NCBI GenBank assembly: GCA_913020725.1
Contig: CAJWCD010000076.1
Span: forward strand, 1-17,881
Origin: an uncultured Pseudomonadota bacterium
Lineage (GTDB): Bacteria > SAR324 > NAC60-12
Length of the DNA stretch: 17,881 bases
Reading direction: 5' to 3'
The notes beneath the pieces are model-generated. The model was not told the origin of the DNA. It saw only the letters and a list, made by a program, of their open reading frames with translations, and searched no databases. This document shows positions 1-17,263 of the stretch, piece by piece. Position 1 is the first letter of the stretch. Each line of letters begins with the position of its first letter. The position numbers and the translations under genes were made by a program.

Positions 1-11
1 TTTATAAATTT

Positions 12-35
12 CTGCACTGATTTGGTGCAGTTTTT
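12..35 (+). terminator. Possible intrinsic terminator hairpin just past the end of the island operon
   Basis: CTGCAC-tgatttg-GTGCAG stem followed by TTTTT on the + strand, ~20 bp beyond the stop codon at 51. May act bidirectionally. Confidence 0.4.
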
Positions 36-50
36 CCAGTTGAAAGTGTT

Positions 51-932
51 TCACTGTTGCAATAAAAAATTTATTCTTTCAATTGATTTTTTAAATAATT
101 TCTTTTCGTTCGTATTGATTTCACCTTCGTGGTAATACATATTTGCACCGGACAGGTTACCGCTTTTTTCTTCTATATATCCCATTGTAAAGTAGTACCT
201 GACTCCACTTTCATGACTTTGAATTCGTAATTTTGCAGCCTCGAAAATCCTACTGCCTATGAAATCAGCAGCCATTTTATCAATCTCAAAAGTGGATTGT
301 TCTTGCACAACACTCTTTAAGTATGGAGCAAACGTCTTTCTTAAAATATTTTGTATGGCTTGGGTTAGGTGTATGTTTGTGCCGCTTGGTAGGATTCCAG
401 TCGTTTTTACATTTATTGGGAATTCAATAGTTATTACCTCTTTTCCTGAATCTTTAATCACGATCTTTGCTTGCCCTTTCGTGCTTATGGTTGTTTGGTA
501 GCTTCTCACTTTCCCAGTTCTTGATGAACATGGATTTTTCTTGCGCAGATAATTGCAGCGAGTTAAAGTGACATTTTCAGTAATTTGCCTTGATGACTCG
601 TTTGGTTTTTCCAGTTTCAACGAAACTGTGATTGCCGTGAAATCCTTGGTGGGGACAACCTGGCCAACACCAAATGGCGCAATGAGTTTTCCTGTGCTGT
701 TGACATCTTGCATGACATCATAATCGCTGTTCATCAATAATTCAGTTAAAATATTTTTCAAATGATAACCATCTCTATCTAAATTAGTCACCAAAATTTG
801 TTTGTTTGTTAAAATTTTCAGTGGTGGTGTAAAGTAGGTGATTGTAAAGTTTTTTCTTGCAGAGAAAGGGCTACACCCAAAAAGCAACATTGATACTGCG
901 AAGCACCAAGCACTACAACGTATTTTTTTCAT
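51..932 (-). CDS. Hypothetical lipoprotein with TPR-like C-terminus (paralog of 913..2124)
   Basis: 293 aa. Signal peptide II with lipobox LFGC, Cys loop RCNYLRKKNPC, C-terminal YYFTMGYIEEKSGNLSGANMYY resembling a TPR. Overlaps the end of the upstream ORF. Confidence 0.85.
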   Translation of the reverse strand: MKKIRCSAWCFAVSMLLFGCSPFSARKNFTITYFTPPLKILTNKQILVTNLDRDGYHLKNILTELLMNSDYDVMQDVNSTGKLIAPFGVGQVVPTKDFTAITVSLKLEKPNESSRQITENVTLTRCNYLRKKNPCSSRTGKVRSYQTTISTKGQAKIVIKDSGKEVITIEFPINVKTTGILPSGTNIHLTQAIQNILRKTFAPYLKSVVQEQSTFEIDKMAADFIGSRIFEAAKLRIQSHESGVRYYFTMGYIEEKSGNLSGANMYYHEGEINTNEKKLFKKSIERINFLLQQ

Positions 933-2124
933 TCAACACCTTGATGTTTTTAAGCGCTTCGACATACATTCTTTTGTAGCCGCCTGCATTGATGGCTTTT
1001 GTATAGTATTCTTTTGCTATCTCAAAATCTCCATAGGTATGATAAATTAATCCCAGATTATAATAATCCGTTGACGATTCAAACATGTTTTCAATAACGT
1101 TTTTTTCCAGAATTTTTCTAGCAACTTCAATTTCACCCTGCTTCAGCCATGCTATTGCAGCATTGTGATTTCCTTCATCAATTTCCAGCCTAACTGTCAG
1201 GTTCATTGTCCCTATGTTATTGCTAATGATCGGGCCTAGTCCCGCTGCAATACTTTGGTTCAAAATTTTTTCATCCTGATAAGGTGTTCTCATTAGTTGG
1301 TAACCATTGAGGCTTTTATGATGAGTGTATTGATCATTTTCATTTATGTAGAAATCACCAGAATACCAAAGATCAATCAACGTTAATGCGTTCTGATCCA
1401 ATCTGATTTCATTCCAAGTTGAGTTTGCTGTAGCTCGACAAGGTTTATATTTTTTTGGTGGTTTTTTTAAATGAAGATGAGAAGCCTCGACAGGCAGCGA
1501 GGGATCCGAAAAAGTGGCAAGCGGCTTTTCATTTGAGAGGGGCAATGCTAGATTCAGGATGTCAGTTTTTGTTGGAATTTTCAAGGAAGTGACTGACACA
1601 GGGTCTTCCAGAAGCGGATTGTCTAAGTATTGACAGCGAGTTTCCTTCCTATAAAAATTATACTTTCTTTCTTTTTCATACCTTCCCGTTTGGATACTGT
1701 AGGATATTTTTAAGCGAATCAGCGCGTCTAGTTTTGGATCTTTGTGACCTGCGGCAGGTCTGATTTTTCTTAAATCATTTTTAATTCGCTGATACTCTTC
1801 CAACGAGAATACTGATTTTCCATCAAAGGATAATGATTCACTTAACGCATCAATTATAATTTTCTTGTTTTGAGGCAAGATTCCTTTTTTGATAACCCTG
1901 TTCGAATGTAACGAGATCCTTCTTTCAGAGAAATCTATTTTATCGAGTTCCAAATCAACAACAACCGTTTTAGCTTTGTTAAATTTTAAATCATTGGTGA
2001 TTTTCCTTTCTAACTGCAGGAAATGCCGATCTGCACAACCATGAAGAACGATTGAAACAAACACTGCATATAACAAAATAATTAACTTATTTGATAACAT
2101 ACGCTTTTGTTTCTGAGATGACAT
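913..2124 (-). CDS. Lipoprotein with C-terminal TPR, carrying a 52-codon in-frame insertion
   Basis: 403 aa. AGGAGG 8 nt before ATG 2124, lipobox LHGC, TPR motif YYNLGLIYHTYGDFEIAKEYYTKAI. Residues LDNPLLED...EASHL are encoded by the inverted copy of 3394-3549. Confidence 0.88.
   Translation of the reverse strand: MSSQKQKRMLSNKLIILLYAVFVSIVLHGCADRHFLQLERKITNDLKFNKAKTVVVDLELDKIDFSERRISLHSNRVIKKGILPQNKKIIIDALSESLSFDGKSVFSLEEYQRIKNDLRKIRPAAGHKDPKLDALIRLKISYSIQTGRYEKERKYNFYRKETRCQYLDNPLLEDPVSVTSLKIPTKTDILNLALPLSNEKPLATFSDPSLPVEASHLHLKKPPKKYKPCRATANSTWNEIRLDQNALTLIDLWYSGDFYINENDQYTHHKSLNGYQLMRTPYQDEKILNQSIAAGLGPIISNNIGTMNLTVRLEIDEGNHNAAIAWLKQGEIEVARKILEKNVIENMFESSTDYYNLGLIYHTYGDFEIAKEYYTKAINAGGYKRMYVEALKNIKVLNEKNTL
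1473..1628 (-). repeat. 156-bp inverted repeat, copy 1 (inside the lipoprotein gene)
   Basis: Reverse complement matches 3394-3549 at 152/156 positions. Mismatch pairs are 1608/3414, 1594/3428, 1581/3441 and 1487/3535. Confidence 0.97.
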
Positions 2125-2656
2125 TGAGCTTGCCTCCTGTCTCCTCTGTGGTTGATAAACTCAAAGAGTACTTATTTCCGGAAGTGACGGCCATTAACAA
2201 TTCTGTTGAATCATCTATTTTATAGATCAAGACGCTATTGTTTCGTGAAACGCTAGGCGTGGTTACAGTCTTAACAATAAGTTCATTCCAACTCTTACTG
2301 ATTGTACAACCCTTGCCACAGTCACTCCTTTGATTTCTGTTGACAAGGTTTGTGGTTGTGTATTTTTTTGTGTCACCCTGCACTTTTCTAGTGTAGCCAT
2401 AAAGCACTATATTTTTTTCTGTTTTTACGACACCCATGTTTTCAAACGAATTGATTGAAATAATTTGAAACCCTTTCTCTCTTAGCTTTCCTAGGATTTT
2501 GTTAAGTAGTTCATTTGTCTCACATTCACAATAGATGACACTGTAATTTTTTTCGATAACAAGTTCTTTCGCTTTACTCTTTTCTATTATTGTTAATTTT
2601 TGTTTTGAACACCCAACTATTGAAATCAACATGAAAACAAAAAATAGTTTCTTCAT
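2087..2656 (-). CDS. Hypothetical lipoprotein
   Basis: 189 aa. MKKLFFVFMLISIVGC lipobox and internal CGKGC loop. Its start overlaps the stop of 2653..3255. Confidence 0.85.
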   Translation of the reverse strand: MKKLFFVFMLISIVGCSKQKLTIIEKSKAKELVIEKNYSVIYCECETNELLNKILGKLREKGFQIISINSFENMGVVKTEKNIVLYGYTRKVQGDTKKYTTTNLVNRNQRSDCGKGCTISKSWNELIVKTVTTPSVSRNNSVLIYKIDDSTELLMAVTSGNKYSLSLSTTEETGGKLNVISETKAYVIK

Positions 2657-3255
2657 AATCTAAAACCTATTGTGAAATTTAACCCAATAGTTAATGCCGG
2701 GTTGTTATCCTTGATAAAGTTTTTATAATTTTTATTTTCAGATTGAAATGTACTATCGTCTGCCAAATCAAAGGAACTGGTATTTATTTCACTTGTGGAC
2801 AAAGCAAAAACACGAATCCCGTAATACACCTCATCACGATCATAGCCTTTGATAGTGGTGGAATACTGCACCATGGGTCCAATGTAAGTAACATTTTTAC
2901 TGAATTTGGTTTTGTTAATCTTTCCAAAATATTCATTTAAATTGGTGGTCACTCCAACATCCCACCGATGAACATATTTTTCAATGCGGTAAAAAAGATG
3001 GAAATCGTAACTTGTTAGTTTTAATTTTCCTGTAAACCCTGAAACGGTATGAACCTTGGTTGATTGTACACTAGCACTAACGCCGTAGCCTTTCACACTA
3101 GCAACTCCCATTTCCAATTGTAACGGGAAAATATTTTCCATCCTTCCTGAATAAAAAGGAAGGCCGATTCCAAAATCCCACGTCTCTGCAAAAACACTGC
3201 TGCTGCTGAATAACAAAAAAATCATCGCTAAAATTAAATTCCTCACTACGTTCAC
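2653..3255 (-). CDS. Probable outer-membrane beta-barrel protein
   Basis: 200 aa. Signal peptide I (VFA|ETW), alternating hydrophobic/aromatic beta-strand pattern, C-terminal LTIGLNFTIGFRL resembling a beta-signal. Confidence 0.75.
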   Translation of the reverse strand: MNVVRNLILAMIFLLFSSSSVFAETWDFGIGLPFYSGRMENIFPLQLEMGVASVKGYGVSASVQSTKVHTVSGFTGKLKLTSYDFHLFYRIEKYVHRWDVGVTTNLNEYFGKINKTKFSKNVTYIGPMVQYSTTIKGYDRDEVYYGIRVFALSTSEINTSSFDLADDSTFQSENKNYKNFIKDNNPALTIGLNFTIGFRL

Positions 3256-3393
3256 CTAATTAAAAAACGTAAAAATTTAAAAACAACACATCCGCTTTTA
3301 CTTGTCATTCAGTTTTAAAAAAATCAGATCTCATCTTCTGGTTCATTTCATGAATTATTGTCACTGTAATGCTGGGATACATAGCGACTCAGA

Positions 3394-3549
3394 ACTTAGA
3401 CAATCCGCTTCTGAAAGACCCTGTGTCGGTCACTTCCTTGCAAATTCCAACAAAAACTGACATCCTGAATCTAGCATTGCCCCTCTCAAATGAAAAGCCG
3501 CTTGCCACTTTTTCGGATCCCTCGCTGCCTGTCGGGGCTTCTCATCTTC
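3394..3549 (+). repeat. 156-bp inverted repeat, copy 2 (upstream region plus first 20 codons of 3490..4332)
   Basis: Matches the reverse complement of 1473-1628 (152/156). Hand count gives 76/156 G+C. Lies at the AT/GC transition. Confidence 0.97.
3438..3466 (+). promoter_or_regulatory. Candidate sigma70-type promoter for 3490..4332 and the surA-like gene
   Basis: TTGCAA (3438-3443), 17-bp spacer ending in TGn, CATCCT (3461-3466), 23 bp before ATG 3490. The -10 match is weak. Confidence 0.4.
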
Positions 3550-4332
3550 TGCGGAACCGGGCTGGTCGCCGCTTCCGGTCATGCCGCAACGTCACCGCTT
3601 GCGTGGGAAGATCTCCAGTTTCAAATGAACCAGCATGTCAAATGGTGGCGCATTTACCTTGAAACCGAGGTGCAAGTGTTCGATCCCCTGCAAACGGTCA
3701 CGGACGCCAAGGGCAAGTTTCGTCCGGTGGAGCGGCCCGCCCGCCGCTACCGCCAGCGCATTCACTGGAAAGCCGATGAGGCCATCATCGTGGAGTCCCT
3801 GGGATTCCAGCAGCGACGGCTGCACGTTCACCTTGAATACAAGGACAACTACGCCGACACGGTCCTGCATCCCGGATTCGACTGGCACGAAACTTCGCCG
3901 TGGTACTTGCGACTGTTAGGCCGAAATTCTCAGAACCGTGAGCAAACACTCTGGGAGTACGGCCTTTCCGGATTTGACGTCACCCTGCAACTCACTGAGG
4001 ACAGTCACGCCTTCTATCGTGTGGGCCATCCTGAATCCGGAGCTTACGCCTTGATTCAGCCTGTCAACTTCCAGATTCACTCGCTGCACCGCGAAGTTCA
4101 ACAGCCGGATGGCACGGTTTGGCAGTTGGAGGTACGCTTTTCGAAATTCAAGATTTACCGGAAACAGGCGTATCCGCAAGTCACGGAATACCTCCTTGAC
4201 GGCAAGCTCCACAAACGCGTCACTGTCACCAAGCTGGAGTACCTGCGACGCATTCCTGTGACCGATCGTAGCACTGCACTGCAACCCTTTGCTCAACCGA
4301 TGACCTCACTTGCGCTCGACCATGCCCGCTAG
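3490..4332 (+). CDS. Secreted hypothetical protein (beta-rich, possibly LolA-like fold)
   Basis: 280 aa. N-terminal signal peptide, beta-strand-rich C-terminus (YPQVTEYLLDGKLHKRVTVTKLE), overlaps the downstream chaperone gene. The fold guess is weak. Confidence 0.75.
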   Translation: MKSRLPLFRIPRCLSGLLIFCGTGLVAASGHAATSPLAWEDLQFQMNQHVKWWRIYLETEVQVFDPLQTVTDAKGKFRPVERPARRYRQRIHWKADEAIIVESLGFQQRRLHVHLEYKDNYADTVLHPGFDWHETSPWYLRLLGRNSQNREQTLWEYGLSGFDVTLQLTEDSHAFYRVGHPESGAYALIQPVNFQIHSLHREVQQPDGTVWQLEVRFSKFKIYRKQAYPQVTEYLLDGKLHKRVTVTKLEYLRRIPVTDRSTALQPFAQPMTSLALDHAR

Positions 4333-5266
4333 ATTTTGGCTTCTGCTGCTCGGAGCTTTGTTGTTTTCCTCCGCCCAATCTGGAGCAGCCCCCCAAGTAA
4401 TTGACCGCATTTTCCTGATTGTCAACAGTCAGATGATGACCCAGAGCGAGGCAGAAGACATTGTCCGTTCGCTCAAGGAACAGATTCAACAAGCGATCCC
4501 GGAAGGGCCGGAGCGCGACCGGCAGTTTGCTGAAGTCGACCGCACCACCGTGGACAGTCTGATTCAGGAACTGCTGCTGCTCGACCGCGCTCGTGTTCTG
4601 AAGATCGAGATTTCCGACAAAGAAGTGGATGCGCAATTGGACCGCATTTCCGAATCCAATCCACAACTGCTCACGGTGATGCCGGAAAGCGAGCTACAGC
4701 TACGCATCGTCAAAGACCTCAAGAAGCAGCGAGTGCTGTCCCGCGAGGTGGACTCGAAGATTCGGGTGGACGGCACCGAGATTCAGTCCGCCTGCCGGAC
4801 GCATCGGCAATCGTTGCGGCAGATCAGCTTGTCACAGATCCTCTTCCGGACTTCCGAAGTGGAGGCGCAAAACCGGGCACAAGAAGTGCGTGCTGCTCTT
4901 ACGGCAGGCAAGGAATTTTCCGCCATCGCCCGCGAGGTTTCGGATGACCCCGGGGCGAAAAAAAATGGTGGGGCACTCGGAAAATTCCAGCAGGGGCAAC
5001 TGCTCCCGGCGATTGACCAAGCTGCCTTTACCCTTCCGGTGGCGCATCCCAGCGAACTGGTGCAATCCCAGTTTGGCTTCCACGTCCTCTTCATCACCAG
5101 GGAGGCGTTCCCCAACGCTCCAGACTGCGCGAAGCTCTCCGCCGAGCAGTCAGACGCGCTTGCCAATTCCGTGTACCAACAAAAACGGAACGAGGCGATC
5201 CAAACCTACCTCAACGAACTCCGGCAGTCTGCTCGCATTACCGTCAAAGAAGTTCCCTCCGAGTGA
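4322..5266 (+). CDS. surA: SurA-like periplasmic chaperone / parvulin (PpiC-type) peptidyl-prolyl isomerase
   Basis: Signal peptide from ATG 4322, SurA N-domain IDRIFLIVNSQMMT, parvulin motifs FSAIAREVSDD...GGALGKF and SQFGFHVL, C-terminal YLNELRQSARI. Confidence 0.85.
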   Translation: MPARFWLLLLGALLFSSAQSGAAPQVIDRIFLIVNSQMMTQSEAEDIVRSLKEQIQQAIPEGPERDRQFAEVDRTTVDSLIQELLLLDRARVLKIEISDKEVDAQLDRISESNPQLLTVMPESELQLRIVKDLKKQRVLSREVDSKIRVDGTEIQSACRTHRQSLRQISLSQILFRTSEVEAQNRAQEVRAALTAGKEFSAIAREVSDDPGAKKNGGALGKFQQGQLLPAIDQAAFTLPVAHPSELVQSQFGFHVLFITREAFPNAPDCAKLSAEQSDALANSVYQQKRNEAIQTYLNELRQSARITVKEVPSE

Positions 5267-5409
5267 GAGCGAGCAACGTCCCCATGTTCCTGATCGTCTC
5301 AGAGATTTCCAAAACACCGACAAGGCCAAGCTACCGACTTCAGGTTATCGCTGTGGGACGACACGCCAAAAACCGAGTGTACGACGATGCCCGCAAGCGC
5401 ACTTTTTGA
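5267..5409 (+). pseudogene. relE: RelE-family toxin remnant (5'-truncated, internal deletion)
   Basis: One frame reads PHVPDRLRDFQNTDKAKLPTSGYR and another VIAVGRHAKNRVYDDARKRTF*. These resemble RelE segments (KIKLRSSGYRL...VISVGKRERSEVY) and are joined at the shared octamer GTTATCGC (5344-5351). Confidence 0.7.
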
Positions 5410-5420
5410 AAAATGAGAGG

Positions 5421-5891
5421 TTGACAGAGCAGATTTTGCAGCCCTTCACCAAGACCGCCGGCAAGCCAATGGTGACGGTTTTGCTGGACTTCGGCTTCCA
5501 CTACGCCGATTTTGTGCTGCGCCCAGATCTGCTGTCCCTCACCCGTCTCGTGATCGGCGAGGCCGAGCGTTTTCCAGAAATCAGACGGAACTACCACCGC
5601 TCCAGTCCCCAGCAAGCCCTGTCCGGAATCATCGCTTACCTGCAAACCCTCACCGCCGAGGGCAAGCTGGAGGTCGAGGATTTTGAGCTTGCGGCCAATG
5701 ACCTGTGGTCACTGATGCTTTCCACACTCCGCGACCTCTACCTGCACATTCCGGACTTGGCGATGAGCCCGGCCGAAATCCACCGCTACCTCTTCAACGG
5801 CATCCGCGTGTTTCTGAAGGCGTACTCCACGAATGCTGACGCGGACCTCGCAGAGTTGGAGGCGTTCCGGACAAAAACGACAAAGCAATAG
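5421..5891 (+). pseudogene. TetR/AcrR-family C-terminal domain lacking the HTH (truncated gene or stand-alone domain)
   Basis: LSLTRLVIGEAERFPEI...AYLQTLTAEGKLEVEDFELAA...GIRVFLKAY is typical of TetR C-terminal ligand domains. No HTH upstream. Possible starts are TTG 5421 or ATG 5469. Confidence 0.7.
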
Positions 5892-5905
5892 CGGGCTTTT
5901 CCACT

Positions 5906-7378
5906 TCAGGGCACCACGCGCAGGTGGAGAAGCGGCTGGGAATTGAGCAGCAATTCTGGAAGTGGTGGCCAACGGATTTGAGCAAGCCCTTCCAGCACGC
6001 CGAGCAGGAATGCAGGCGAACCTTGCCGCGAAAGCAAGCGCAGGGTCGGCGACTCCGCTTGCTTGGAAAAACGTAGTTCCAGCACCAATTCAGAATCCGG
6101 ACGGTGACGTTGCAGTGGGCGGAAACTCGACTCCACCGCCTTGCGGAGTTTTTCGTGCCAAAGTTCCCGCGCCCCCTGCAGCACCTTGCGACGCGCCAGC
6201 CGTTTTTTCGTTTTGGGGCTCATGCCGATTTTGCTTGCCGAAGTGTCCGGCGGAACATGCAGATGCGTCAGTGGAGCCATGCGAAAACGGAAGGTCACAC
6301 GCAACTGTTCATCCGGAAATCCAAAAGGCAACGGCGGCAGCAACACGGTGTCCACTGCCCGGAGCGCGACTTCCTGCACACTCTCCGGCAGTTCACCCGT
6401 GGCCTGTGCCTGCGTGTCTAAAATCCGTCCGTCCCGATTGACTTTCACAGTGACCCACACCTCTCCACCTTGCGGATGTTCCCCGGACAGGTACTCGGTG
6501 GGTGGGTGCTGCGCCCAGTAAAATCGCGTCTGCTCGTTCCAACGCTTCAGGTAGTCCGTGTATTCCCAATCGTAGGTGCTGAGTTGATGGTTGGTGTAAT
6601 AGTGGACGGTGAGTTGAGGATCGGTCATCGGTCGTCGGTCGTCGGTCGTCGGTTGGTAGTCGGTCATCGATGCGCGGACATGGCCTGCTCCTACAAAGTC
6701 TGCCTTCTGCTTTTTGCCTTCTGCTTTGTCGGGATCGGCCTCAACTTTGGAGGCGTTGTCAGCAACAGTTTCAGAGGCAGCGAGTTGGGGTTGCGATTCA
6801 GGCAAGGTCGGTCCTTCCACGCGCTCCAGATACTCAAACTTGGTGATGAAGAGCGGGGCGCCCATTGCATCAACCGCCTCGGCGCTAGCTTCCTTGAGGT
6901 GGTCTTCGTCATCCGGAAATGCCAGTCCCGTGAAGCGCACCCACTCGCCGACCCGAAAGGTGGCGAGCCAGTCGTAAAGTTCGGTTCCCGGAAAAACGAG
7001 GGTGCCGTAATCCAAGTCCAGATAGGCGTTGTTCCATGTCCCCACCCGTGGCCGCACCTGAGCATCAACTCGTTGGGGATCGGCAACCGTGATTTCCAGA
7101 TACGCCTTACCATTCGCTGTTGCCCGCAGCGACGTCAGCACTCCGACCCATTCCAGAAACTGACGATCCGGGAGCAACTTCGCCAGATACTCCTTGCGCT
7201 GTTTGCGAATCAGGAACTGCTCCAGCGGATTTTGAGAATCGGACCACTGCTGATGAAACGCTGCGATGGCCTGCTGGAACTGTTGCTGTTTCACAGGCGC
7301 AACGGCGGTTTCTTGCGCAATCACCGTTCCTGCCAAAGACACGAGCAAGAGCGATCCCAGCCAACGAAGTTTGCTCAC
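5906..7378 (-). CDS. Secreted protein with an unknown N-terminal domain and two TonB/TolA C-terminal-like domains
   Basis: 490 aa. Signal peptide, acidic linker, then GEVWVTVKVNRDGRI...LPPLPFGFPDEQLRVTFRF and a second unit ELVLELRFSK...SPAF...WPPLP. GTGA overlap with the upstream gene. Confidence 0.8.
   Translation of the reverse strand: MSKLRWLGSLLLVSLAGTVIAQETAVAPVKQQQFQQAIAAFHQQWSDSQNPLEQFLIRKQRKEYLAKLLPDRQFLEWVGVLTSLRATANGKAYLEITVADPQRVDAQVRPRVGTWNNAYLDLDYGTLVFPGTELYDWLATFRVGEWVRFTGLAFPDDEDHLKEASAEAVDAMGAPLFITKFEYLERVEGPTLPESQPQLAASETVADNASKVEADPDKAEGKKQKADFVGAGHVRASMTDYQPTTDDRRPMTDPQLTVHYYTNHQLSTYDWEYTDYLKRWNEQTRFYWAQHPPTEYLSGEHPQGGEVWVTVKVNRDGRILDTQAQATGELPESVQEVALRAVDTVLLPPLPFGFPDEQLRVTFRFRMAPLTHLHVPPDTSASKIGMSPKTKKRLARRKVLQGARELWHEKLRKAVESSFRPLQRHRPDSELVLELRFSKQAESPTLRLLSRQGSPAFLLGVLEGLAQIRWPPLPELLLNSQPLLHLRVVP
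6621..6666 (+). repeat. Heptamer tandem repeat (TCGGTCG consensus) inside the TonB-C protein linker
   Basis: TCGGTCA TCGGTCG TCGGTCG TCGGTCG TCGGTTG gtag TCGGTCA. Encodes MTDYQPTTDDRRPMTD on the minus strand. Confidence 0.9.
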
Positions 7379-8976
7379 AGTCGTTTCCCTTCCGCGTCAA
7401 ACTGGACGACAAACACATCCAAGCCGCCTTGGTGCGTGTGTCCATCCAAACTGCCGCCCACGCTCCCGGTGGCGACAAGATTTCCGTTGGGAAGAAAGGC
7501 CAACGCCCGGACTTCATCGGCTCCGGACGTGCCGAACTGCCGAGTCCACAAAAGGGTGCCGTCCATCTGCAACAAGCTGACGAAGGCATCGCCCTGCGCG
7601 GCGGTTTGCTGCTCCGGAAAAACCCCCTGGGTGGAGCCGCCAATGGCAAGGGTGTTGTTGTCGGAAAGTGCGATGGCGTGGACCCGTTCGTCGGCTTCCG
7701 TACCCAATTGCTGGAGCCACTGCGGGTTGCCTTGAGCATCGAAACGGACGACAAAGGCATCATCCCCCTGTCCGGATTCCAGGACTTCGGCAAGCGAGGA
7801 ACCGTTCGCCCGCAGCTTGCCTCCAGTCACGCCTGCCACCACCACTCCGTCTGCGTTTGCGGCAAGCGCGGTGACGGCATCGCTGAAGGCCGTGGGCAAG
7901 CGTCGGCTCCAGCGTTTCAATCCAGAGGGGTCGAGTTTCATCACAAAACCGTCCTGTGTGTGGGTTGAGGGAGTGCCGTCCAGCGGCCCGGTCACGATTC
8001 CCCCTGCGTAGAGCGTGGCACGTTTGTGCAGGGCAAGGGCTTTCACGAAAATCCCGGAACCCAGCGTGGCAGAAGAGCGCTGCTTCCAACGTCGGTGATT
8101 GACGCGCAAATGTCGCCGCGTGTCGCCGGACGAGAGCAGATTGCCTGCGGGATCGAGAACCAGCGCGGAACCTTGCGGGGCTGAGGGCCAGCTAAACTCG
8201 ACAGGTGGCCCAGCAACACCGTCTTCGCCAAAACTCGTGAGCGCAAGCGTGGTTCCGGATGCTCCCGGAAGCAAGGCTCCCACGCGCCATCCGGAATCCG
8301 TGGGCTGAAGCGCAAGCGCGTTGGGCAGTTTGCCGAATCCCGGTTGCTGAATCCACTGCTGGTCGCCTTCACGGTCGTAGAGTGCGAGGAAGCCATCCTC
8401 CGAAACATTGTCATCGTTTTCAAAACGGGAGGCGCCCGCGACGAGCAGCCGCCCCTGCGCATCAGTGTGCAGGGCGAGGCCAAGGTCATCTCCGGACGCA
8501 CCAATTGAGATCGTCCATTTTGTCGGAAAACGGTCCTCGGTCGTGTAGACGGATTTCAAGGGTGCGCCTTTTTTGCTCTTGGCTTCCGGAGTGATGCGAA
8601 GCTGGTAGCGAACCTTGCGACGCAACGGTTCCGTCGGCAGGAATTGAAAGCTTTTCTGCTGGTCGGAATTTCCGGTGCGGATGAGCAGGGCGCAGGTCTG
8701 GAAACCATCCGGAGAGAGCTGAACAACGCCCGTGCAGCTTCCATCTGTGGGGAGTTCCTTGCCAAGCTTGGAGTCCATCGGCAGCGAGAAGCTCACCTCG
8801 ATTTTCGGCAGCAGCGAAATCGTGGTGCCGTTGTCCGTGGGAGACACCGAAACGACTTCCGGCGTGGGCAGTTTTGGTTTCGCTTTGGGAGTTTTGGGTG
8901 CCTCCGGAGTGCTTTCAAAACACCCTGCAAGCAGGAACAGGAGACCGATGATCAGGGTCAGGAAGGAGAAACGCAT
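7375..8976 (-). CDS. Lipoprotein with an Ig-like (Big_5/SbsA-type) domain and beta-propeller (SBBP-type) repeats
   Basis: 533 aa. Lipobox LAGC, Pro/Lys linker, PEVVSVSPTDNG...IEVSFSLPMD Ig-like start, repeated DAFVV.FD..G...W..Q.GT...D/E motifs. Confidence 0.88.
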   Translation of the reverse strand: MRFSFLTLIIGLLFLLAGCFESTPEAPKTPKAKPKLPTPEVVSVSPTDNGTTISLLPKIEVSFSLPMDSKLGKELPTDGSCTGVVQLSPDGFQTCALLIRTGNSDQQKSFQFLPTEPLRRKVRYQLRITPEAKSKKGAPLKSVYTTEDRFPTKWTISIGASGDDLGLALHTDAQGRLLVAGASRFENDDNVSEDGFLALYDREGDQQWIQQPGFGKLPNALALQPTDSGWRVGALLPGASGTTLALTSFGEDGVAGPPVEFSWPSAPQGSALVLDPAGNLLSSGDTRRHLRVNHRRWKQRSSATLGSGIFVKALALHKRATLYAGGIVTGPLDGTPSTHTQDGFVMKLDPSGLKRWSRRLPTAFSDAVTALAANADGVVVAGVTGGKLRANGSSLAEVLESGQGDDAFVVRFDAQGNPQWLQQLGTEADERVHAIALSDNNTLAIGGSTQGVFPEQQTAAQGDAFVSLLQMDGTLLWTRQFGTSGADEVRALAFLPNGNLVATGSVGGSLDGHTHQGGLDVFVVQFDAEGKRL

Positions 8977-9141
8977 GGGGCCACGAAGGTCAATGCCCCA
9001 AAAAGCATCACAATGTGTGCCAAGTGATCAGGAGGTTGGGGAGTAGGGGACAGATTATGGATGCGGAACAAAACGACCCGTGTTCATCCGCACAATCCGT
9101 AGCGGGAATCGAGAGCCGAAGACCGATGGCAGCCAGCAGCA

Positions 9142-9683
9142 GCAGAGCAGCGCGGCGTGCTTGGGGTCGGCGGCGAGGGGTTGGTCGCGTCCGGCGAGGA
9201 CTTGGATGAGGCGGGTGAGCTTGGGCCTTCCGGGCTGGCGAGGTCGAGGTCGCGCTGCAAGGCCAGTTCGAGCCTGGTGATCTTTTCCTCGACCGCATCG
9301 AGTTTCTGCTCCAGGGGCTTGACCGCCGTGCGGCGGTCCCACGCGATTGTAGGCGAAGAGGGCGATCAGCATGATCAGCGATCCGAAGAGCATGAGGGTC
9401 ACATTCATCTGCTCGGAGAAGCCCTCAGCCATGCGGCGGTCCATGCGCTCAAAGCGCTGGTCCATGCGCTGCTCAACGGCCTCGAAACGCTCGTGAATGA
9501 CTTTGAACTCCGCCTTGATCTCGGCAAGGGACTCGATGATCTCTCGGTCCGAGAGGCGTGGGGCAGTCTCGATGGCGAACGGAACTCCGGGCAGCAGAAT
9601 CCCGGCAATCAAAAGACCCCAGTGAGGAATAGACGAAACACGCGCCCCATTGCGTAGTGAAGGCAGCAACTATCGAAAACCAT
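9142..9683 (-). pseudogene. Coiled-coil single-TM membrane protein gene with three frameshifts
   Basis: GGAGG then ATG 9683, whose frame stops at 9609-9611. A second frame gives APRLSDREIIESL + coiled coil + TM. An extra base at 9347-9348 interrupts YIAWDRRTAVKPLEQKL, and a missing base near 9223 returns to KLTRLIQVL. The 3' end is approximate. Confidence 0.7.
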
Positions 9684-9893
9684 GAGCCTCCACGCTAACC
9701 CACCTCCTGTCGAGATGCAAGGGCAGTCTCTGGAGTGCTGGTGCCTGTTCTCAGCAAAATTCACCCTGTAAAGTGTTGTGACTTTGCAAATAGACAGCGT
9801 TTTCCGGTGTGTTTTCCTCGGTTTTCAGTGATTTTTCCAGAATTTCAGAGAAACAACACTCCAGAGGGAGACCATCGAACGCCCGGAGTCCTG

Positions 9894-11318
<1,425 letters not shown>

Positions 11319-11484
11319 CTAAAAATTGTTGTGTTTCAGCATGACGCACCTGCCGAAAAACGCAATTCCAGCGTTTCTGCAAGCAGTTCCCACCCGGAAC
11401 AGCTTGAACCGCCTGTGGTTTGAGTTATCCTGCAAGCGTTCTACTCAATAGCAATCCTGTTACCGCGCCTTCTCCGCATTTTCG

Positions 11485-14400
11485 GTGCCTCACGCTCACG
11501 TTTCCAAAACGATCCCACACACGCTGAAGGTCCACCGACTGGCCGGATCGAGTGCCGCATGGTGGTTGTCTGAACTTCAGGTCCAGCGTCAGCAACCGCT
11601 GCTGATCCTCTGCGAAAGCTTTGAGCAGGCGGAATCCTGTTTGGGCGACCTCGCGTTTTTCAGCGGGAAGGACGGGCTGCACTTCTTCCCCTCGTGGGAC
11701 GTGATGCCCTACGATTTCTTCTCGCCGCAGAAGGAACTCGTGGGGCAGCGAATGCAAACGCTCGATGCACTTCTGCACGAAAATGTGCGCTTTGTGGTCA
11801 CGACTCCACAAGCGGTGATGCAGCGGGTGCTGCCCAAGGAATTATTCCAGAACGCTCTGCTGGACCTGAAAACCGAAGCGTCGCTTGCCGAACACAAACT
11901 GCGTCGCAAGTTCCGGATGCTGGGTTATGTGGAGGTGGACACAGTGGAGGATCGTGGCGAGTTCTGCCTGCGAGGGACACGGCTGGATATCTTTCCCAGC
12001 AACCAGTCCACCCCGTTTCGCCTAGAACTCCGGGGCCGAGATGCTTCCGGATTGCAACGGATTTCCTCGATCCATCCCTTCGACCTGCGTTCGCAAATCT
12101 CCGAGCAAACCACCCTGCTGAGCCTGCGGCTGCTGCCGGCCTCGGAGGTGCAGTTGAGTCCGGAGCAGTGCGACCACGCGCTTGACGAACTGGAGCAGTA
12201 TCGAGAACAACTTCCGGACAACCAGTTCTCGTCCACCCAGCACACCATCCGCAACGGACAGCCTTTTCCGGGGATGGAAAGCCTCGCCGCGCTCTACCAC
12301 AAGCTCGACACCGTGTTCGACTATCTACCGCCAAAAACGCGGGTCGTGTTGCAAGAGGATGCAAAACTTCAGCAACACGCCACCTTCTTCCGGGACGAGG
12401 TGCTGCGCGAAGCCGAAATGAGCATGGCGCAGGGACGCCTCACGCTCGATCCGGATCTGCTGTTCCTTGGCCCTGCGGACTTGGAAAGCTTGCTGGAAGA
12501 GTGGCCCTGTGTGGGTGTCACCTCGGCCCACGAGGTGGAGGCTCCGCCAGACCCTTTGGCTGCGCTCAGGGCAGGCTTCCAACGACTCGCCGGAGCCAGC
12601 TCGCAGAGTTTCAGTTTTCAGGGAAACAGCTCCCTGCGCGAGGGCTTCCGTGCGGCCAAGGCACTTTCGGCGGTCGGCAACGCGATGGAGCGGCTGCGGA
12701 CGTGGCAGGCGGAGCGGGTTCCGGTGGTGCTGGCGGCACGTTCGCAGACACAGGCCGATCATTTTCGGGAATTGCTGTTCGATCTCGAAGTGGAATCCCG
12801 GCTTTTGCAGGATCACTTTTCCGGGGCGGACAGTCCGCCGCTGCCTTCTTCGATTTTGCCGTGGGCGGAGTTTTGTGCAGGGACGGGCTGGAGCCACAAG
12901 CTTGCAAAGCAGTGGGGCTGGAATCCGCAAACCACTGGAATCCTGCCGATTGTGGTAGGGGAGGTGTCCTCCGGATTCCGCTTGCTGGATGCCGAAAATC
13001 AGGTGTGTTTTGCACTCGTCACCGAGGATGAGGTTTTTGGGAAAAAGACCCGCCAGCGCCGCTTGCAGCGCGTGGCCATGCCGGGTTGGTCGGGCAGCCT
13101 CGACGATCTCAACGAGGGGGATTTCGTCGTGCATCTCGATTACGGCATCGGCTGCTACCGGGGTTTGCAGAAAATCGAGGCGGCGGGCATCCAAAACGAA
13201 TTCATGCTGCTGACCTTTGCGAGGGAGGAGAAGGTGTACGTTCCGGTCAGCAAGTTCCACCTCGTGCAAAAGTATGTGCATCCGGACGGGGGCCGTCCCA
13301 AGCTCAACAAGCTCGGCGAGAAGGCGTGGAAGAAAACCCGCAGCCGCGTGGCCAAGGCAGTGGAGGACATCGCAGAAGAACTTGCCGAAATCTATGCGGC
13401 CCGCAAGGCGCGGCGCGGCCATGCCTTTGAGCGCGATTCCCACGAGATGCAGGAGTTTGAGCAGGGCTTTCCCTTCGAGGAAACTCCGGACCAGCTTGAG
13501 GTCATCATGCAGGTGAAACGAGACATGGAATCCACCATGCCGATGGATCGTCTGGTGTGCGGCGATGTCGGCTTCGGCAAGACCGAAGTGGCCATGCGGG
13601 CGGTGTTCAAGGCAGTGAGCGACGGCAAGCAGGTCGCCATGCTGGTGCCCACCACCATCCTCGCTCAGCAGCATGATGTCTCCTTCCGGCAACGCTTTGA
13701 GGAAACCGCGATCACAGTGGAATCCCTGAGCCGCTTCCGAACCACAGCCGAGCAACGAGGCATCCTCAAACGACTCGCCGAGGGTAAGCTGGACCTCGTG
13801 ATCGGCACCCATCGGCTGCTCTCCAAGGACGTGAAGTTTGCCGACTTGGGGCTGCTCGTGGTGGACGAGGAGCAGCGTTTCGGAGTCAAGCAGAAGGAGC
13901 GCATCAAGCAGTTCCGCGCCGAGGTTGATGTCCTCACGCTTTCCGCGACACCGATTCCACGCACGCTGCACATGTCCCTGATGGGCCTGCGCGACCTCAG
14001 CATCATCAACACCCCACCCGCCGACCGCATCGCCATCCGCACTCGGCTCGTCCACACCAACGACACGGTGATTCAGGAAGCCGTGAGCCGAGAACTGCGG
14101 CGGCAGGGGCAGGTGTTCGTCGTCCACAACCGCGTGGAGACGATCTTTGAATACGGACGCCACCTCCAGCGCATCCTCCCACAAGTGCGCATCGCGGTCG
14201 CACATGGGCAGATGAGCGAGCATCAACTCGAACAGCTCATGCTCGACTTCATCGAGGGCCGCTACGATCTGCTGCTCTCCACCACCATCATCGAATCCGG
14301 ACTTGACATCCCCCGCGCCAACACCATCCTCATCAACAACGCCGACCGCTTTGGCCTCGCACAGCTTTACCAACTCCGGGGGCGCGTGGGCCGCAGCAAC

Positions 14401-15156
14401 GTGCAGGCCTTCGCCTACCTGATGGTCTTGCCTGAAAAAATCATCAGCCAAACGGCGCGGGATCGGCTACAGGTTTTGCAAGACCTCAACGACCTCGGCG
14501 TCGGGTTCAAGTTGGCGTCCCGCGATCTGGAAATCCGGGGGGCCGGAAACCTGCTCGGCTCCGAGCAGTCCGGGCAAATCGCCAGCGTGGGGCTGGAGTT
14601 GTACACGCAGATGGTGGACCGTGCCGTCAAGCGTTTGCAACGGCAGGAAGCCGGACAGGAGGAGAATTTGGAAGTGCGCGTGATCTTCAATGCCATCGTC
14701 CAAGAAGTTCCGGACGCCTACATTCCCAACACCAACAAGCGGCTCTCACTCTACAAAACCCTCGCGTCGCTGGACGCGGAAGACACGCTTTGGGATCTCC
14801 GCAACGGCACGGAAGATCGCTTCGGGCCGCTTCCGGAAGCCTTGCTCAATCTCTTCAAGTCCGCACAGGTTCGGATTTGGGCGCAGGAACGCTGTGTGCA
14901 AACGGTCGAGTTGCGGGGCGAAAAACTACGGCTCCAGATTGCCAAACCAGACGCGCTCAACCACGAAACGCTGATCCACTGGCTCAGCGAACCGGATTCT
15001 GCCCTGCGCTACATTCCGGAAAACACGCTGGAGGTCCGCAACGTCCCTCCCGATTTTGACGCAATTCTGGGAGAACTGCGACTCTTGGAAGACCTGTTTG
15101 CTGGAAAATCCGCGCCGCTTCCCGCGGTGCCACTTCCCACCGGAACCAATGGCTGA
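11485..15156 (+). CDS. mfd: Transcription-repair coupling factor
   Basis: 1223 aa. UvrB-like N-terminus (FPSWDVMPYD), RID (GDFVVHLDYGIG), CGDVGFGKTEVA, DEEQRFGV, SATPIPRTL, QLRGRVGRS, TRG motif DLEIRGAGNLLG, C-terminal TRCF domain. Exact start uncertain. Confidence 0.97.
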   Translation: MPHAHVSKTIPHTLKVHRLAGSSAAWWLSELQVQRQQPLLILCESFEQAESCLGDLAFFSGKDGLHFFPSWDVMPYDFFSPQKELVGQRMQTLDALLHENVRFVVTTPQAVMQRVLPKELFQNALLDLKTEASLAEHKLRRKFRMLGYVEVDTVEDRGEFCLRGTRLDIFPSNQSTPFRLELRGRDASGLQRISSIHPFDLRSQISEQTTLLSLRLLPASEVQLSPEQCDHALDELEQYREQLPDNQFSSTQHTIRNGQPFPGMESLAALYHKLDTVFDYLPPKTRVVLQEDAKLQQHATFFRDEVLREAEMSMAQGRLTLDPDLLFLGPADLESLLEEWPCVGVTSAHEVEAPPDPLAALRAGFQRLAGASSQSFSFQGNSSLREGFRAAKALSAVGNAMERLRTWQAERVPVVLAARSQTQADHFRELLFDLEVESRLLQDHFSGADSPPLPSSILPWAEFCAGTGWSHKLAKQWGWNPQTTGILPIVVGEVSSGFRLLDAENQVCFALVTEDEVFGKKTRQRRLQRVAMPGWSGSLDDLNEGDFVVHLDYGIGCYRGLQKIEAAGIQNEFMLLTFAREEKVYVPVSKFHLVQKYVHPDGGRPKLNKLGEKAWKKTRSRVAKAVEDIAEELAEIYAARKARRGHAFERDSHEMQEFEQGFPFEETPDQLEVIMQVKRDMESTMPMDRLVCGDVGFGKTEVAMRAVFKAVSDGKQVAMLVPTTILAQQHDVSFRQRFEETAITVESLSRFRTTAEQRGILKRLAEGKLDLVIGTHRLLSKDVKFADLGLLVVDEEQRFGVKQKERIKQFRAEVDVLTLSATPIPRTLHMSLMGLRDLSIINTPPADRIAIRTRLVHTNDTVIQEAVSRELRRQGQVFVVHNRVETIFEYGRHLQRILPQVRIAVAHGQMSEHQLEQLMLDFIEGRYDLLLSTTIIESGLDIPRANTILINNADRFGLAQLYQLRGRVGRSNVQAFAYLMVLPEKIISQTARDRLQVLQDLNDLGVGFKLASRDLEIRGAGNLLGSEQSGQIASVGLELYTQMVDRAVKRLQRQEAGQEENLEVRVIFNAIVQEVPDAYIPNTNKRLSLYKTLASLDAEDTLWDLRNGTEDRFGPLPEALLNLFKSAQVRIWAQERCVQTVELRGEKLRLQIAKPDALNHETLIHWLSEPDSALRYIPENTLEVRNVPPDFDAILGELRLLEDLFAGKSAPLPAVPLPTGTNG

Positions 15157-15868
15157 GAATTCCCCGGAACGCTGGCTTCAGTCGCAAACCAGCGACTTGC
15201 TGGAAACCGCTATCCTGTTGCTGGATCGGCTGCATTGTCCCCCCTTCGAGTTGGGTTGGCTGCATTCCGAAAGCGGGCAGACCTACCGGACGCTGCTGCT
15301 GGAAGTGGAGCGGGTGCTGCTGGAAGTCTGGGAGGCCACTCAAAATAAAAAATTCGCAGAACTGGAGGACTCGCTGCAACTCTGGTTTCAGGATCAACTT
15401 CGACAGGAAAACGGACTGTTCCGGCAGTACCAACGATTGCACGAGGCACTGGAGGACTGGCGCCACACTCCGGAACCGCAACAACAGGGTTTGCAGGGTT
15501 GGCTCGATTTCCAGCTTCACATGCTAGTCCAGGAACCCACCCTGCTTGTCCGCAAGGCGCAGGATGCGCAAGTGTCCATCGAAGAGCTGGAGATCTTGTC
15601 GGGAAAAGCCCTCGCGTGGGTGCAACCCCTGGCATCCGAAACCCCGCACGACCTGCTCGATGAATTTTTCACCCTGCTCCGTCCCTTCACCAAAACCCAC
15701 CCGGAACTCCTACCCCTCGACCACCTGCAAGCCCCTCCCGCTTCCCGGAACGCCCCCCTGCTCGACCAACTCCGCTCCGCCCTCAATGATCAGGACGACT
15801 GGGAATCCTCCGGGATCGAACTGGCGAAATGGCTACGGGAGGCCGTTGTGTTTCATTCGGCAAAGTGA
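15149..15868 (+). CDS. Hypothetical all-helical cytoplasmic protein, coupled to mfd
   Basis: ATG 15149 overlaps the mfd stop and is in frame with the listed 270-aa ORF. Leu/Glu/Gln/Trp-rich with core-like codon usage. No recognised motif. Confidence 0.75.
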   Translation: MAENSPERWLQSQTSDLLETAILLLDRLHCPPFELGWLHSESGQTYRTLLLEVERVLLEVWEATQNKKFAELEDSLQLWFQDQLRQENGLFRQYQRLHEALEDWRHTPEPQQQGLQGWLDFQLHMLVQEPTLLVRKAQDAQVSIEELEILSGKALAWVQPLASETPHDLLDEFFTLLRPFTKTHPELLPLDHLQAPPASRNAPLLDQLRSALNDQDDWESSGIELAKWLREAVVFHSAK

Positions 15869-15878
15869 ATGAAACGAT

Positions 15879-16397
15879 TTATGGTTCTGCAAACTGCTGA
15901 ACAGACTTGAGGGGCAGGAAGAGTCGGAGCGGGAGATCTGAGAAAGCAATGAAGCCGAATTTTTCATAAAAGGACTTCGCCTGCGCATCCTTCGCGTCCA
16001 CCACCATTGCATGGATGGCAATGGAGTGGCTTGCGGCCAAAGCGCGTTTGAGGGCATCCACGAGCAGTAGCTTTCCAAGTCCCTGTCCCTGAAATTGCGT
16101 ATCCACCGCCAAGCGTCCCAACAAGACAGCGGGCAGTGGATACTGAGGAAGTTTTTTCGCCAAAACCGTAGGCATAGACCTCGCCTGAATCACTGCCGCA
16201 CTGAGGGTGTAGAATCCTGCAACTCGGTGGTTGTTGAGCGGACGCATCACAAAGACTTGAGCAAGACGTCGTTTCACGTCCTGGCTGGCTTGTCGAAGCA
16301 GGTACGTCTCCAGTGCTTCCTGACCACAGGAAAATCCCGATTTCTGATGATGCTTGCCGAGGGGTTCTACAACATACCGAGGTTCAGGCATCCCCAT
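15879..16397 (-). CDS. GNAT acetyltransferase toxin (TacT/AtaT type)
   Basis: FSCGQEALETYL, VAGFYTLSA, PAVLLGRLAVDTQFQGQGLGKLLLVDAL, VVDAK...FYEKFGF. Start at ATG 16397 or 16391, overlapping the antitoxin end. Confidence 0.92.
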   Translation of the reverse strand: MGMPEPRYVVEPLGKHHQKSGFSCGQEALETYLLRQASQDVKRRLAQVFVMRPLNNHRVAGFYTLSAAVIQARSMPTVLAKKLPQYPLPAVLLGRLAVDTQFQGQGLGKLLLVDALKRALAASHSIAIHAMVVDAKDAQAKSFYEKFGFIAFSDLPLRLFLPLKSVQQFAEP

Positions 16398-16680
16398 GCG
16401 CAACAACTTCATTACTGTGGTCAGCAAACGCGCTCCGTAGCGCCCGATTCGGCGGCGGCGGGTCCAGCAAGGCCGCGAACAGTCGATCCCGGTCTTGGTC
16501 ACTCAGGGTCAGGGTTTCGTGATCCCCGATGATTTTTTCAGCGGAGGCCAAGGCACTGGCCAGCACAAAGCTGCTGACCGAGCGTTGGGCAAAGGTCGCC
16601 GCTCGTTCAATTTTTCGCTTGGCGTCCGCATCAAGACGGAGCGAAAGACGCGAGGATAGTGCTGAAACGGTTTGAGACAT
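16384..16680 (-). CDS. DUF1778 ribbon-helix-helix antitoxin (TacA/AtaR type)
   Basis: 98 aa. RLSLRLDADAKRKIERAA...SVSSFVLASA...LSDQDRDRLFAALLDPPPPNRAL. GGAGGG RBS before the ATG; directly upstream of the GNAT gene. Confidence 0.93.
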   Translation of the reverse strand: MSQTVSALSSRLSLRLDADAKRKIERAATFAQRSVSSFVLASALASAEKIIGDHETLTLSDQDRDRLFAALLDPPPPNRALRSAFADHSNEVVAHGDA

Positions 16681-16721
16681 AGCCCTCCGGAGCGCATGGG
16701 TTTAGTGGAGCAAACCCGAAA

Positions 16722-16750
16722 AATGTACAGCAAAATGACACACCAAGCAA
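16722..16750 (-). promoter_or_regulatory. Candidate sigma70 promoter of the TA operon with an overlapping imperfect palindrome
   Basis: Minus strand TTGCTT-17 bp-TACATT. Imperfect inverted repeat TGTACA..N7..GACACA over the -10/spacer, as expected for RHH autorepression (inference). Confidence 0.55.
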
Positions 16751-17263
16751 GATAAGGATCGCAGAAAAAACCTTAAAAGTGACAGAATTCGCCACAGTGG
16801 ATTTTCAGGAGTTGGAGCGGTTGTCCGCGAAAACGACATCCTGTTCCCCGCCGAAACGTGGACAGCAGTCCGAATCCTGTGTCAGGAACGGGGCGTGGAC
16901 GGAGTGCCTCAGAATACAGCCTCCGAAGCCATTTTCCAGAAAACTTTATGAGGTGGTCTGCGGTTTGCAGAAGATTGAGGGAGGGCGCGTTTTTGAAAAA
17001 CGCGCTCGCAGAAAAGCACGGGGGATCAAAGGCCATTGGGCTCGGACCATCCTTGGTACACAAATCCATCCTTGGATACATGACCAGTGATCGCCCCGTG
17101 CTAAATTCTCGCTAAGTTTTGGAAAGCAAATCGTGAACCAATCCTCAGCGGCAGCTCTGCTTTCCAGTTAATCCACTGATATTCAGGACATTCGCAAACG
17201 CTCGGCGGCGGGAGAATTGCTTCTCGATCCTGAGATTTCTTGCCGACCAGCAGGTTTTTCCCC

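Follow-up and report, generated by a model that had tools for sequence, protein, structure and literature searches.

Quasipalindrome template switching in Escherichia coli is a brief switch to a nearby template that leaves an inverted copy. Short-range template-switch mutations are described likewise, as a transient switch to a nearby template, often on the opposite strand, that leaves an inverted copy (Walker et al. 2021, PMC7954356). For fork stalling and template switching (FoSTeS) and break-induced replication that is mediated by microhomology (MMBIR), the passages of Hastings et al. (2009, PMC2621351) report a microhomology of 2-5 bp and mostly complex events of kb to Mb size, in human and E. 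coli amplification systems. In a long-read study of Mediterranean metagenomes, metagenome-assembled genomes (MAGs) of SAR324 bacteria had the highest density of structural variants, about 120 per Mb, and the mean sizes of insertions and deletions were below 200 bp (passages of PMC12379486). Here, we describe a 156-nt inverted copy of DNA from the front of a core gene that lies, in frame, within the gene of a predicted lipoprotein (lipoB) in a 17,881-nt stretch of DNA from an uncultured SAR324 bacterium (lineage NAC60-12; assembly GCA_913020725.1, contig CAJWCD010000076.1, positions 1 to 17,881). This stretch, called the window below, is a whole contig (C76) of the MAG G000, which has 3.45 Mb in 204 contigs, a GC content of 56.8%, and a completeness of 93.3%.

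The locus shares several features with FoSTeS/MMBIR as presented in the passages of PMC2621351: a breakpoint receives a copy of nearby DNA while the donor stays in place, the inverted orientation is common there, and neither transposition machinery nor a target-site duplication is involved. It differs by its junctions, which share 0-1 nt, and by being a single clean insertion of 156 nt, in frame, in a wild bacterial population. Short-range and quasipalindrome switches typically concern a few to tens of bases copied from within tens to hundreds of bases, whereas here 156 nt would have been copied from 1.77 kb away. In size, the 156-bp presence/absence polymorphism resembles the variants reported for SAR324, as does a second polymorphism at this locus, that of a 127-nt miniature inverted-repeat transposable element (MITE) at 3261/3262; the passages of that study (PMC12379486) do not describe this locus, templated inverted insertions, or an in-frame coding gain. 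A keyword search of the literature returned no account of this locus or of in-frame templated inverted insertions in marine bacteria, which is not proof of absence. The insertion is an unusually well-documented natural instance of a known mutation class and not a new kind of system.

Results

An inverted copy of core gene DNA inside lipoB

The host gene lipoB (913..2124, minus strand) encodes a predicted lipoprotein of 403 aa, or of 351 aa without the insert. The inserted inverted copy occupies 1473..1628 (minus strand); its 156 nt make 52 codons in the lipoB frame and encode residues 168-219 (LDNPLLEDPVSVTSLKIPTKTDILNLALPLSNEKPLATFSDPSLPVEASHLH). The other copy, referred to as the donor, is found at 3394..3549 (plus strand) and consists of the 96 nt upstream of the core gene 3490..4332 plus the first 20 codons of this gene, the ATG of which is at position 3490. 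Between the two copies are 1765 nt (1629..3393) comprising the 5' part of lipoB, the genes lipoC and omp, and an AT-rich intergenic region. The initial annotation of this DNA had described 1473-1628 as a 152/156 inverted copy of 3394-3549, and both an alignment and a script agreed with that count when the inner copy was compared with the reverse complement of the donor. The mismatches are at window positions 1487, 1581, 1594, and 1608. Beyond the repeat, the inner and core copies bear no relation to each other on either side. A repeat search of the window returned one inverted repeat pair, 1473-1633 with 3389-3549 (161 nt, 96% complementary, 1755 nt between the arms). Only these two copies were retrieved when the whole MAG was searched with BLAST (inner copy, E 1.9e-71), so the pair is neither a chance similarity nor a dispersed repeat.

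The open reading frame (ORF) 913..2124 remains open for 403 aa through the insert, the 52 codons of which are free of stops, and the insert has a GC content of 47.4%, whereas the remainder of lipoB has 34.3% and the core gene 57%. These values are in line with the stop-free frame and the ~47% GC reported at first. It had also been proposed that exact removal of the segment would restore a short loop; deleting 1473-1628 does yield exactly the natural empty allele found in metagenomes (see below), with the loop RCQYLKKPPKKYKPC.

Through the inner copy, lipoB also contains the ATG of the core gene and its 20 signal-peptide codons, read in a different frame (1532-1473, minus strand). A short open frame of about 26 aa results inside lipoB, with no sign of use.

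Filled and empty alleles in independent assemblies

A metagenome contig of 3556 nt (L017) was found to be 99.9% identical to window 1-3262, including the insert and both junctions. In addition, five distinct full-length proteins with the insert (403 or 395 aa; P0001, P0031, P0033, P0036, and P0038) are encoded on 10 contigs from JGI, ENA, and NCBI, the longest contig with such a protein being 20,690 nt. Words were sampled from window 1000-4200, and at least half of them occur in each of 19 public runs, which belong to 14 studies (seawater, marine, hydrothermal vent). Four of these runs (X2, X4, X9, and X17) were examined at the contig level using their Logan contigs, with a 31-nt rule for the bridging of a junction. 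In X9, a Logan contig covers 1162-1530, that is, across the left junction, while contigs of X2 and X4 begin at 1599, 30 nt into the insert, and so miss the rule by a single nucleotide. The inner copy is also physically distinct, as position 1594 differs from every core copy examined (4/4) and 1581 is an inner-only variant. Taken with L017, the five proteins on 10 contigs, and the X9 contig, the insert is not an assembly chimera, one of the two refuting outcomes named in the initial annotation; the other, a reversed direction of copying, did not come out either (see below).

An empty allele was found as well. The 20,997-nt contig L021 is 98.9% identical to window 1616-7000 and 86-1472 and is without exactly the 156 nt; it also carries the donor copy at the core site. 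The protein of this allele (P0002, 351 aa, that is, 403-52) is encoded on 9 contigs, and eight further cluster members that cover the loop region all have RCQYLKKPPKKYKPC. In run X17, position 1471 is followed directly by 1628 on a Logan contig of 1938 nt, which omits the 156 nt and has only 29 nt on its short side. A 75-nt contig of this run bears the left junction of the insert, so both alleles seem to co-occur there. Filled and empty alleles are both present in ocean metagenomes.

Donor and direction of copying

A search of 5.8 billion proteins led to 27 other homologues of lipoB, of 268-370 aa and with 38-86% BLASTP identity (a figure that counts the insert gap). Exactly 12 residues separate two invariant cysteines in each of them (C-x12-C, 27/27). 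This fixed length does not agree with a loop-diversification hotspot, which the initial annotation had put forward as one option. The donor is conserved in place, upstream of and inside the core orthologue, in two genomes of the same genus: in the sister species G002 (83.5-84% identity) and, starting from about window 3428, in G001 (76-78% identity); no homologue of the island genes was present in the 6 kb fetched from G001. The core copy is therefore taken as the donor and the lipoB copy as derived, since the homologues, G002, and L021 have lipoB without the segment and the donor is conserved at the core site in both G002 and G001. We consider it very likely, with respect to the event, its direction, and its recency, that the core copy served as donor in a recent duplicative insertion; this is the donor originally proposed. 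With an empty allele in L021 and the donor retained, the idea that a clean templated insertion converted non-coding and off-frame DNA into protein has held up: 52 new residues, drawn from non-coding and out-of-frame DNA, lie between two invariant cysteines.

Changes since the insertion

The four differences between the copies were polarised with outgroups in an alignment of inner and core copies. The difference at 1594 is an inner-copy change common to both inner DNA copies aligned (window and L017) and is silent in the protein. Position 1581 changed in the window lineage only; L017 and P0001 keep the donor base (Q rather than K). At 1487, P0038 has the donor base (G rather than E), and the change probably took place in the inner copy. 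The difference at 1608 is a polymorphism of the core copy; the core copy of L021 has the base of the inner copy. Three of the four mismatches had been attributed to the inner copy, an attribution that is clear for 1594 and 1581 and probable for 1487, while 1608 belongs to the core copy. Three inner haplotypes lead stepwise away from the donor, from E,Q,G (P0038) to E,Q,E (P0001, L017) to E,K,E (window), which supports the view that the insertion persisted. The inner copy has gained two to three substitutions since the insertion. All three inner-copy changes are toward A on the lipoB sense strand, the polarised types being G-to-A and C-to-A.

In runs X2 and X4, both copies collapse into one unitig of double depth (in X4, the unitig 3394-3534 has a depth of 81, compared to 39 for its flanks); the copies are thus nearly identical in these populations. 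The insertion is more recent than the ~1% divergence that separates strains. Outside of the insert, lipoB of the window and of L021 differ by 5 synonymous and 3 non-synonymous codons, small numbers that suggest a host gene that is still constrained, with no sign of decay.

Predicted place of the insert in the lipoprotein

LipoB has a hydrophobic leader ending in ...HGC, and Cys30 is invariant in 26/26 sequences. Its architecture consists of an alpha/beta N-domain with a long hairpin followed by a C-terminal TPR region, the latter identified by a Pfam match and by VIA (Z 11.5). The empty allele was modelled by AlphaFold2 from an alignment of 25 homologues with a mean predicted local distance difference test (pLDDT) of 82.9. 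In this model, strands 134-164 and 177-210 make a very long hairpin (pLDDT 86-92), and the 12-residue Cys-to-Cys turn is modelled confidently (pLDDT 86-88). The model of the window protein keeps the same strands (134-163 and 230-262), and the pLDDT is below 50 over exactly residues 168-219, which are the insert. The new residues are predicted to be a disordered extension at the tip of a beta-hairpin of about 30 residues; the loop-tip location given in the initial annotation is thus matched by the structure predictions with and without the insert. As the two cysteines (Cys164 and Cys229, the latter being Cys177 in the empty form) end and begin the hairpin strands, a disulfide could plausibly close the loop at its base.

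The top Foldseek match of the empty allele was CsgG (4uv2_F; E 1.1e-3, probability 0.99, TM 0.26/0.36). With residues 43-306, VIA returned Cj1090c (Z 9.5), XCC0632 (Z 8.9), and the TraT decamer (Z 8.9), in a range that VIA calls common. Like the CsgG/TraT/LptE-type proteins (PDB 4uv2, 9e2v, 7rxu, 2iqi), lipoB is predicted to be a lipoprotein with an alpha/beta domain and long projecting beta-hairpins; unlike them, it does not match the Pfam CsgG family, has low TM-scores, and carries an extra C-terminal TPR domain. When all members (26/26) were scanned against Pfam at E up to 1, there was no CsgG match, only TPR-type families and scattered single hits. An NCBIfam scan of lipoB gave weak TPR-type matches alone, all far below the cut-off, and a sequence profile search of the PDB gave TPR matches alone. 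DUF6340, suggested by the ESM Atlas (0.91, 169 shared features), was kept as a lead only, as it was not found by the Pfam scan. Overall, the N-domain is predicted to resemble weakly the CsgG/TraT/LptE-type outer-membrane lipoproteins. These structural neighbours are outer-membrane lipoproteins, some of which form barrels from such hairpins. If lipoB builds a barrel from its hairpins, the insert would sit at the cell surface, and we note as a lead the prediction that the hairpin tip would be surface-exposed and tolerant of inserts.

Possible flipping of the segment between the copies

Phase-variation inversion switches (Hin/Gin, FimB/E, shufflons) rely on short repeats and a dedicated recombinase. 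The lipoB locus is like them in that inverted repeats flank a segment with a putative promoter and gene 5' ends, and flipping would disconnect the 3' half of lipoB and lipoA. It is unlike them in that the 156-bp repeats are of accidental origin and no recombinase family was matched in the 15 window ORFs scanned, flipping being a candidate only. A recombinase-driven invertible switch is very improbable on this basis, with repeats of 156 bp and no serine/tyrosine recombinase-type family among these 15 ORFs.

Three recombinant ORFs of 246 aa (P0032, P0034, and P0035) were identified on three contigs of 1.1-1.3 kb. P0032 is made of the N-terminal half of lipoB, the repeat, and the right flank of the core copy, and P0034 and P0035 are made of the left flank of the core copy, the repeat, and the C-terminal half of lipoB. 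These junctions reflect either real recombination or mispairing by the assembler, and the short length of the contigs favours an artefact. Such an assembler error arises if the k-mer is shorter than the 93-106-nt identical core (the spacing of the mismatch sites), in particular where depth is low. The joints listed for runs X2, X4, X9, and X17 include none that changes strand, which says little because Logan contigs break at the repeat. That the 156-bp inverted copies recombine in wild SAR324 and really flip the 1.77-kb segment, as a newborn switch free of any recombinase, appears doubtful. If this were true, the flipped form would have a truncated lipoB and a lipoA that upstream transcription no longer reaches, and a second flip would restore both. 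A single mutation would then have given a new 52-residue surface loop plus an on/off inversion polymorphism, and the locus would show an invertible switch arising from a single replication error.

Formation of the insertion

We favour a single replication template switch. The nascent strand would have moved to the opposite-strand template within one fork, briefly copied the core copy 1.77 kb away, and then returned, leaving the donor in place and 156 nt inverted in lipoB. This mechanism is preferred because of the geometry, that is, a short inverted copy from 1.77 kb away with the donor retained, and we give it about an even chance. When the product is set against the empty site (L021) and against the flanks of the donor, one junction has one ambiguous base (T/A) and the other has none, with an imperfect match of 3/4 at the return. 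No target-site duplication or terminal repeats were seen at the junctions. The 15 window ORFs scanned with Pfam had no match to recombinase, transposase, or integrase families, and no reverse transcriptase (PF00078) and no Ku (PF02735) were found in the 93%-complete MAG, although the absence of Ku from a MAG is not proof. The DNA fold of 1430-1670 gave a z-score of 0.8, with no special hairpin at the insertion site.

The open frame of the insert does not seem to require a special mechanism, since only stop-free inserts with a length that is a multiple of three would survive in a gene under selection; it is probably a rare survivor of selection on lipoB. Of the 156-nt segments that either strand offers within about 3 kb, only 14.8% are stop-free at this phase. 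The MAG has 28 same-contig repeat pairs of at least 60 nt, and the pair described here is the sole inverted one. Combined with the fixed loop length in all other homologues, this indicates that the insertion is a one-off event.

Other explanations were weighed against a template switch. A double-strand break in lipoB could have been sealed by homology-free joining with a captured or copied 156-nt piece from nearby. The junctions, which share 0-1 nt and are thus below the 2-5 bp given as typical of microhomology-primed switching in the passages of PMC2621351, and the lack of a target-site duplication would suit such a repair. We nevertheless find it possible but rather unlikely, as Ku was not found in the 93%-complete MAG (which is not proof), as a donor that is inverted and just 1.77 kb away is the geometry expected of a switch between two fork arms, and as one inverted pair among the 28 does not reveal a general habit of fragment capture. 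Homology-free junctions would also suit end joining in a scheme where an inversion came first: breaks staggered by 156 nt in the core site, together with a break in lipoB, would invert 1629-3393 and duplicate the 156 nt at both ends, and homologous recombination of the new inverted copies would later flip the segment back. P0032 and P0034/P0035 are exactly the two junctions of this flipped intermediate. Such a scheme requires two rare events instead of one, and Ku was not found in the MAG. Moreover, the recombinant ORFs are on contigs of 1.1-1.3 kb, whereas the collinear form is on contigs of up to 20.7 kb, and the same junctions arise when an assembler mispairs edges at a repeat with a 93-106-nt identical core. 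The lack of a strand-changing joint among the contigs listed for X2, X4, X9, and X17 points the same way, as weak evidence given that Logan contigs break at the repeat. We regard an initial inversion as improbable.

Still less credit is due to an assembler having placed the 156 nt in lipoB through the shared repeat or a strain mixture. The window is indeed a whole MAG contig, with the AT-rich cassette at the contig end. However, what borders the inner copy on either side is lipoB sequence, unlike either flank of the core copy, inner-specific substitutions are present (1594 in all inner copies, 1581 in some), and the same structure was recovered on independent JGI, ENA, and NCBI contigs and in X9. 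Equally close to dismissal is copying in the reverse direction, from a native lipoB segment to the front of the core gene, or the work of an active system such as a mobile element, a diversity-generating retroelement, or a recombinase-driven switch. The lipoB frame is open across the core copy too (ORF 3369..3662), and the inner copy has A at 3/4 of the mismatches, as could be expected in these cases. Yet the segment is missing from lipoB in the 27/27 other homologues and in G002, while it is present in the core site of G002 and G001; the genome contains no more than two copies; no reverse transcriptase was found in the MAG and no recombinase, transposase, or integrase match in the 15 window ORFs scanned; and the inner copy changed by G-to-A and C-to-A rather than by A-to-N relative to a template. 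A transposable element or MITE was rejected based on the two MAG copies without terminal repeats or duplication, in contrast to the 127-nt MITE of L017 with at least 11 copies. A diversity-generating retroelement was rejected based on the lack of a PF00078 match in the 93%-complete MAG and on the G-to-A or C-to-A inner changes.

It should be noted that several observations weigh against a template switch in lipoB or against the picture of the protein that goes with it. The junctions share 0-1 nt, compared to 2-5 bp in the MMBIR/FoSTeS literature (passages of PMC2621351). The recombinant ORFs are both junctions expected if 1629-3393 flipped, and they would also fit a staggered-break inversion followed by re-inversion. 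Among the Logan contigs listed, a single one (X9 record 29) spans a junction strictly under the 31-nt rule, and the read-level support for the insert rests on the contigs of independent assemblies. Surface exposure and a CsgG-like fold rest on weak matches (E 1.1e-3, TM 0.26/0.36; Z 8.9-9.5). Finally, none of the public runs found for the region is an RNA run that would speak for expression of the insert-bearing lipoB.

Genomic context

The window is AT-rich from position 1 to about 3390 (30-41% GC), and the remainder has a GC content of 53-59%. The AT-rich part is a cassette of four genes on the minus strand. The first, omp (2653..3255), encodes a secreted protein of 200 aa with a signal peptide and no family. 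It is followed by lipoC (2087..2656), which is in the same operon and encodes a predicted lipoprotein of 189 aa that is 78% identical to its orthologue in G002, where the gene order is the same, then by lipoB, and last by lipoA (51..932), which encodes a predicted lipoprotein of 293 aa. The genes overlap by 20 nt (lipoA/lipoB, 913-932), 38 nt (lipoB/lipoC, 2087-2124), and 4 nt (lipoC/omp, 2653-2656), which suggests that the four may form one translationally coupled operon. No Pfam family was found in the cassette genes besides the TPR at the end of lipoB. The initial annotation had treated the ORF 51..932 as a paralog of lipoB with a matching motif, a relationship that was not recovered by BLASTP (E 0.049 and 0.88) or by hhalign of the two families (probability 6.7%).

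On the other side of the boundary, the core gene (3490..4332, plus strand) encodes a protein of 280 aa with a signal-peptide-like N-terminus and no Pfam family. It is located upstream of a SurA-like gene, and TetR-type, thiolase, Mfd, and other genes are also found beyond it. The core gene was matched in 30/40 relatives searched (31/41 counting G000). The AT-rich cassette beside these core genes is not a mis-join, as the boundary is bridged by contigs of runs X17, X9, and X2, a metagenome contig (L028) runs past the window start, and synteny is kept in G002, where the cassette, with its gene order unchanged and a lipoB that is without the insert, likewise adjoins the core gene.

Upstream of the core ATG, window 3440-3489 (around AAAACTGACATCCTGAA and the next 30 nt) hardly varies among the three genomes of the genus. 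This stretch, which is now also inside lipoB, shows no obvious Shine-Dalgarno sequence and could be either a regulatory element or a leader of an unusual kind. The copied region had been labelled a promoter at first, a label that found no backing in a sigma-70 promoter and terminator scan of 3150-3650, which returned 0 sites. An Rfam scan of window 1-6000 (E up to 1) gave only a sub-threshold IMES-2 match at 4289-4403.

Contig L028 is 100% identical to window 1-1238 and then runs for a further 2557 nt with 99.9% identity to the end of another MAG contig, C81 (C81:14590-17146); C76 and C81 therefore adjoin. Past the window start, C81 encodes two more predicted lipoproteins, of 458 and 288 aa, and its GC content rises. 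The MAG has about 40 stretches below 42% GC (e.g., C12:1-4000, C77:1-2500, and C103:11501-13500), compared to the genome mean of 56.8%. Many of these stretches are at contig ends, so this organism has frequent low-GC islands at which its assembly tends to break.

The 127-nt AT-rich MITE is carried by contig L017 (L017:102-228), where it is inserted at window 3261/3262 with short terminal inverted repeats and what appears to be a TA duplication. The MAG contains at least 11 nearly complete copies with 77-99% identity, plus fragments at contig ends. Loose contig ends at 3261 in runs X4 and X9 match the MITE, which indicates a second presence/absence polymorphism in the same intergenic region.

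Discussion

To our knowledge, clean natural cases in which non-coding or out-of-frame DNA becomes protein in one step are rare, and we know of even fewer where the ancestral allele, the donor, and several descendant haplotypes can be observed in one wild population. The lipoB locus is a dated and polarised case of such a gain, in an abundant uncultured ocean bacterium. It indicates that the predicted exposed hairpin tip of an envelope lipoprotein can take 52 arbitrary residues and still spread (10 contigs). Its junction pair, with 0-1 nt of homology, offers a test case for models of templated insertion in bacteria. For SAR324 itself, the insertion gives a mechanism-level example for the richness in structural variants below 200 bp that the passages of PMC12379486 report for these bacteria.

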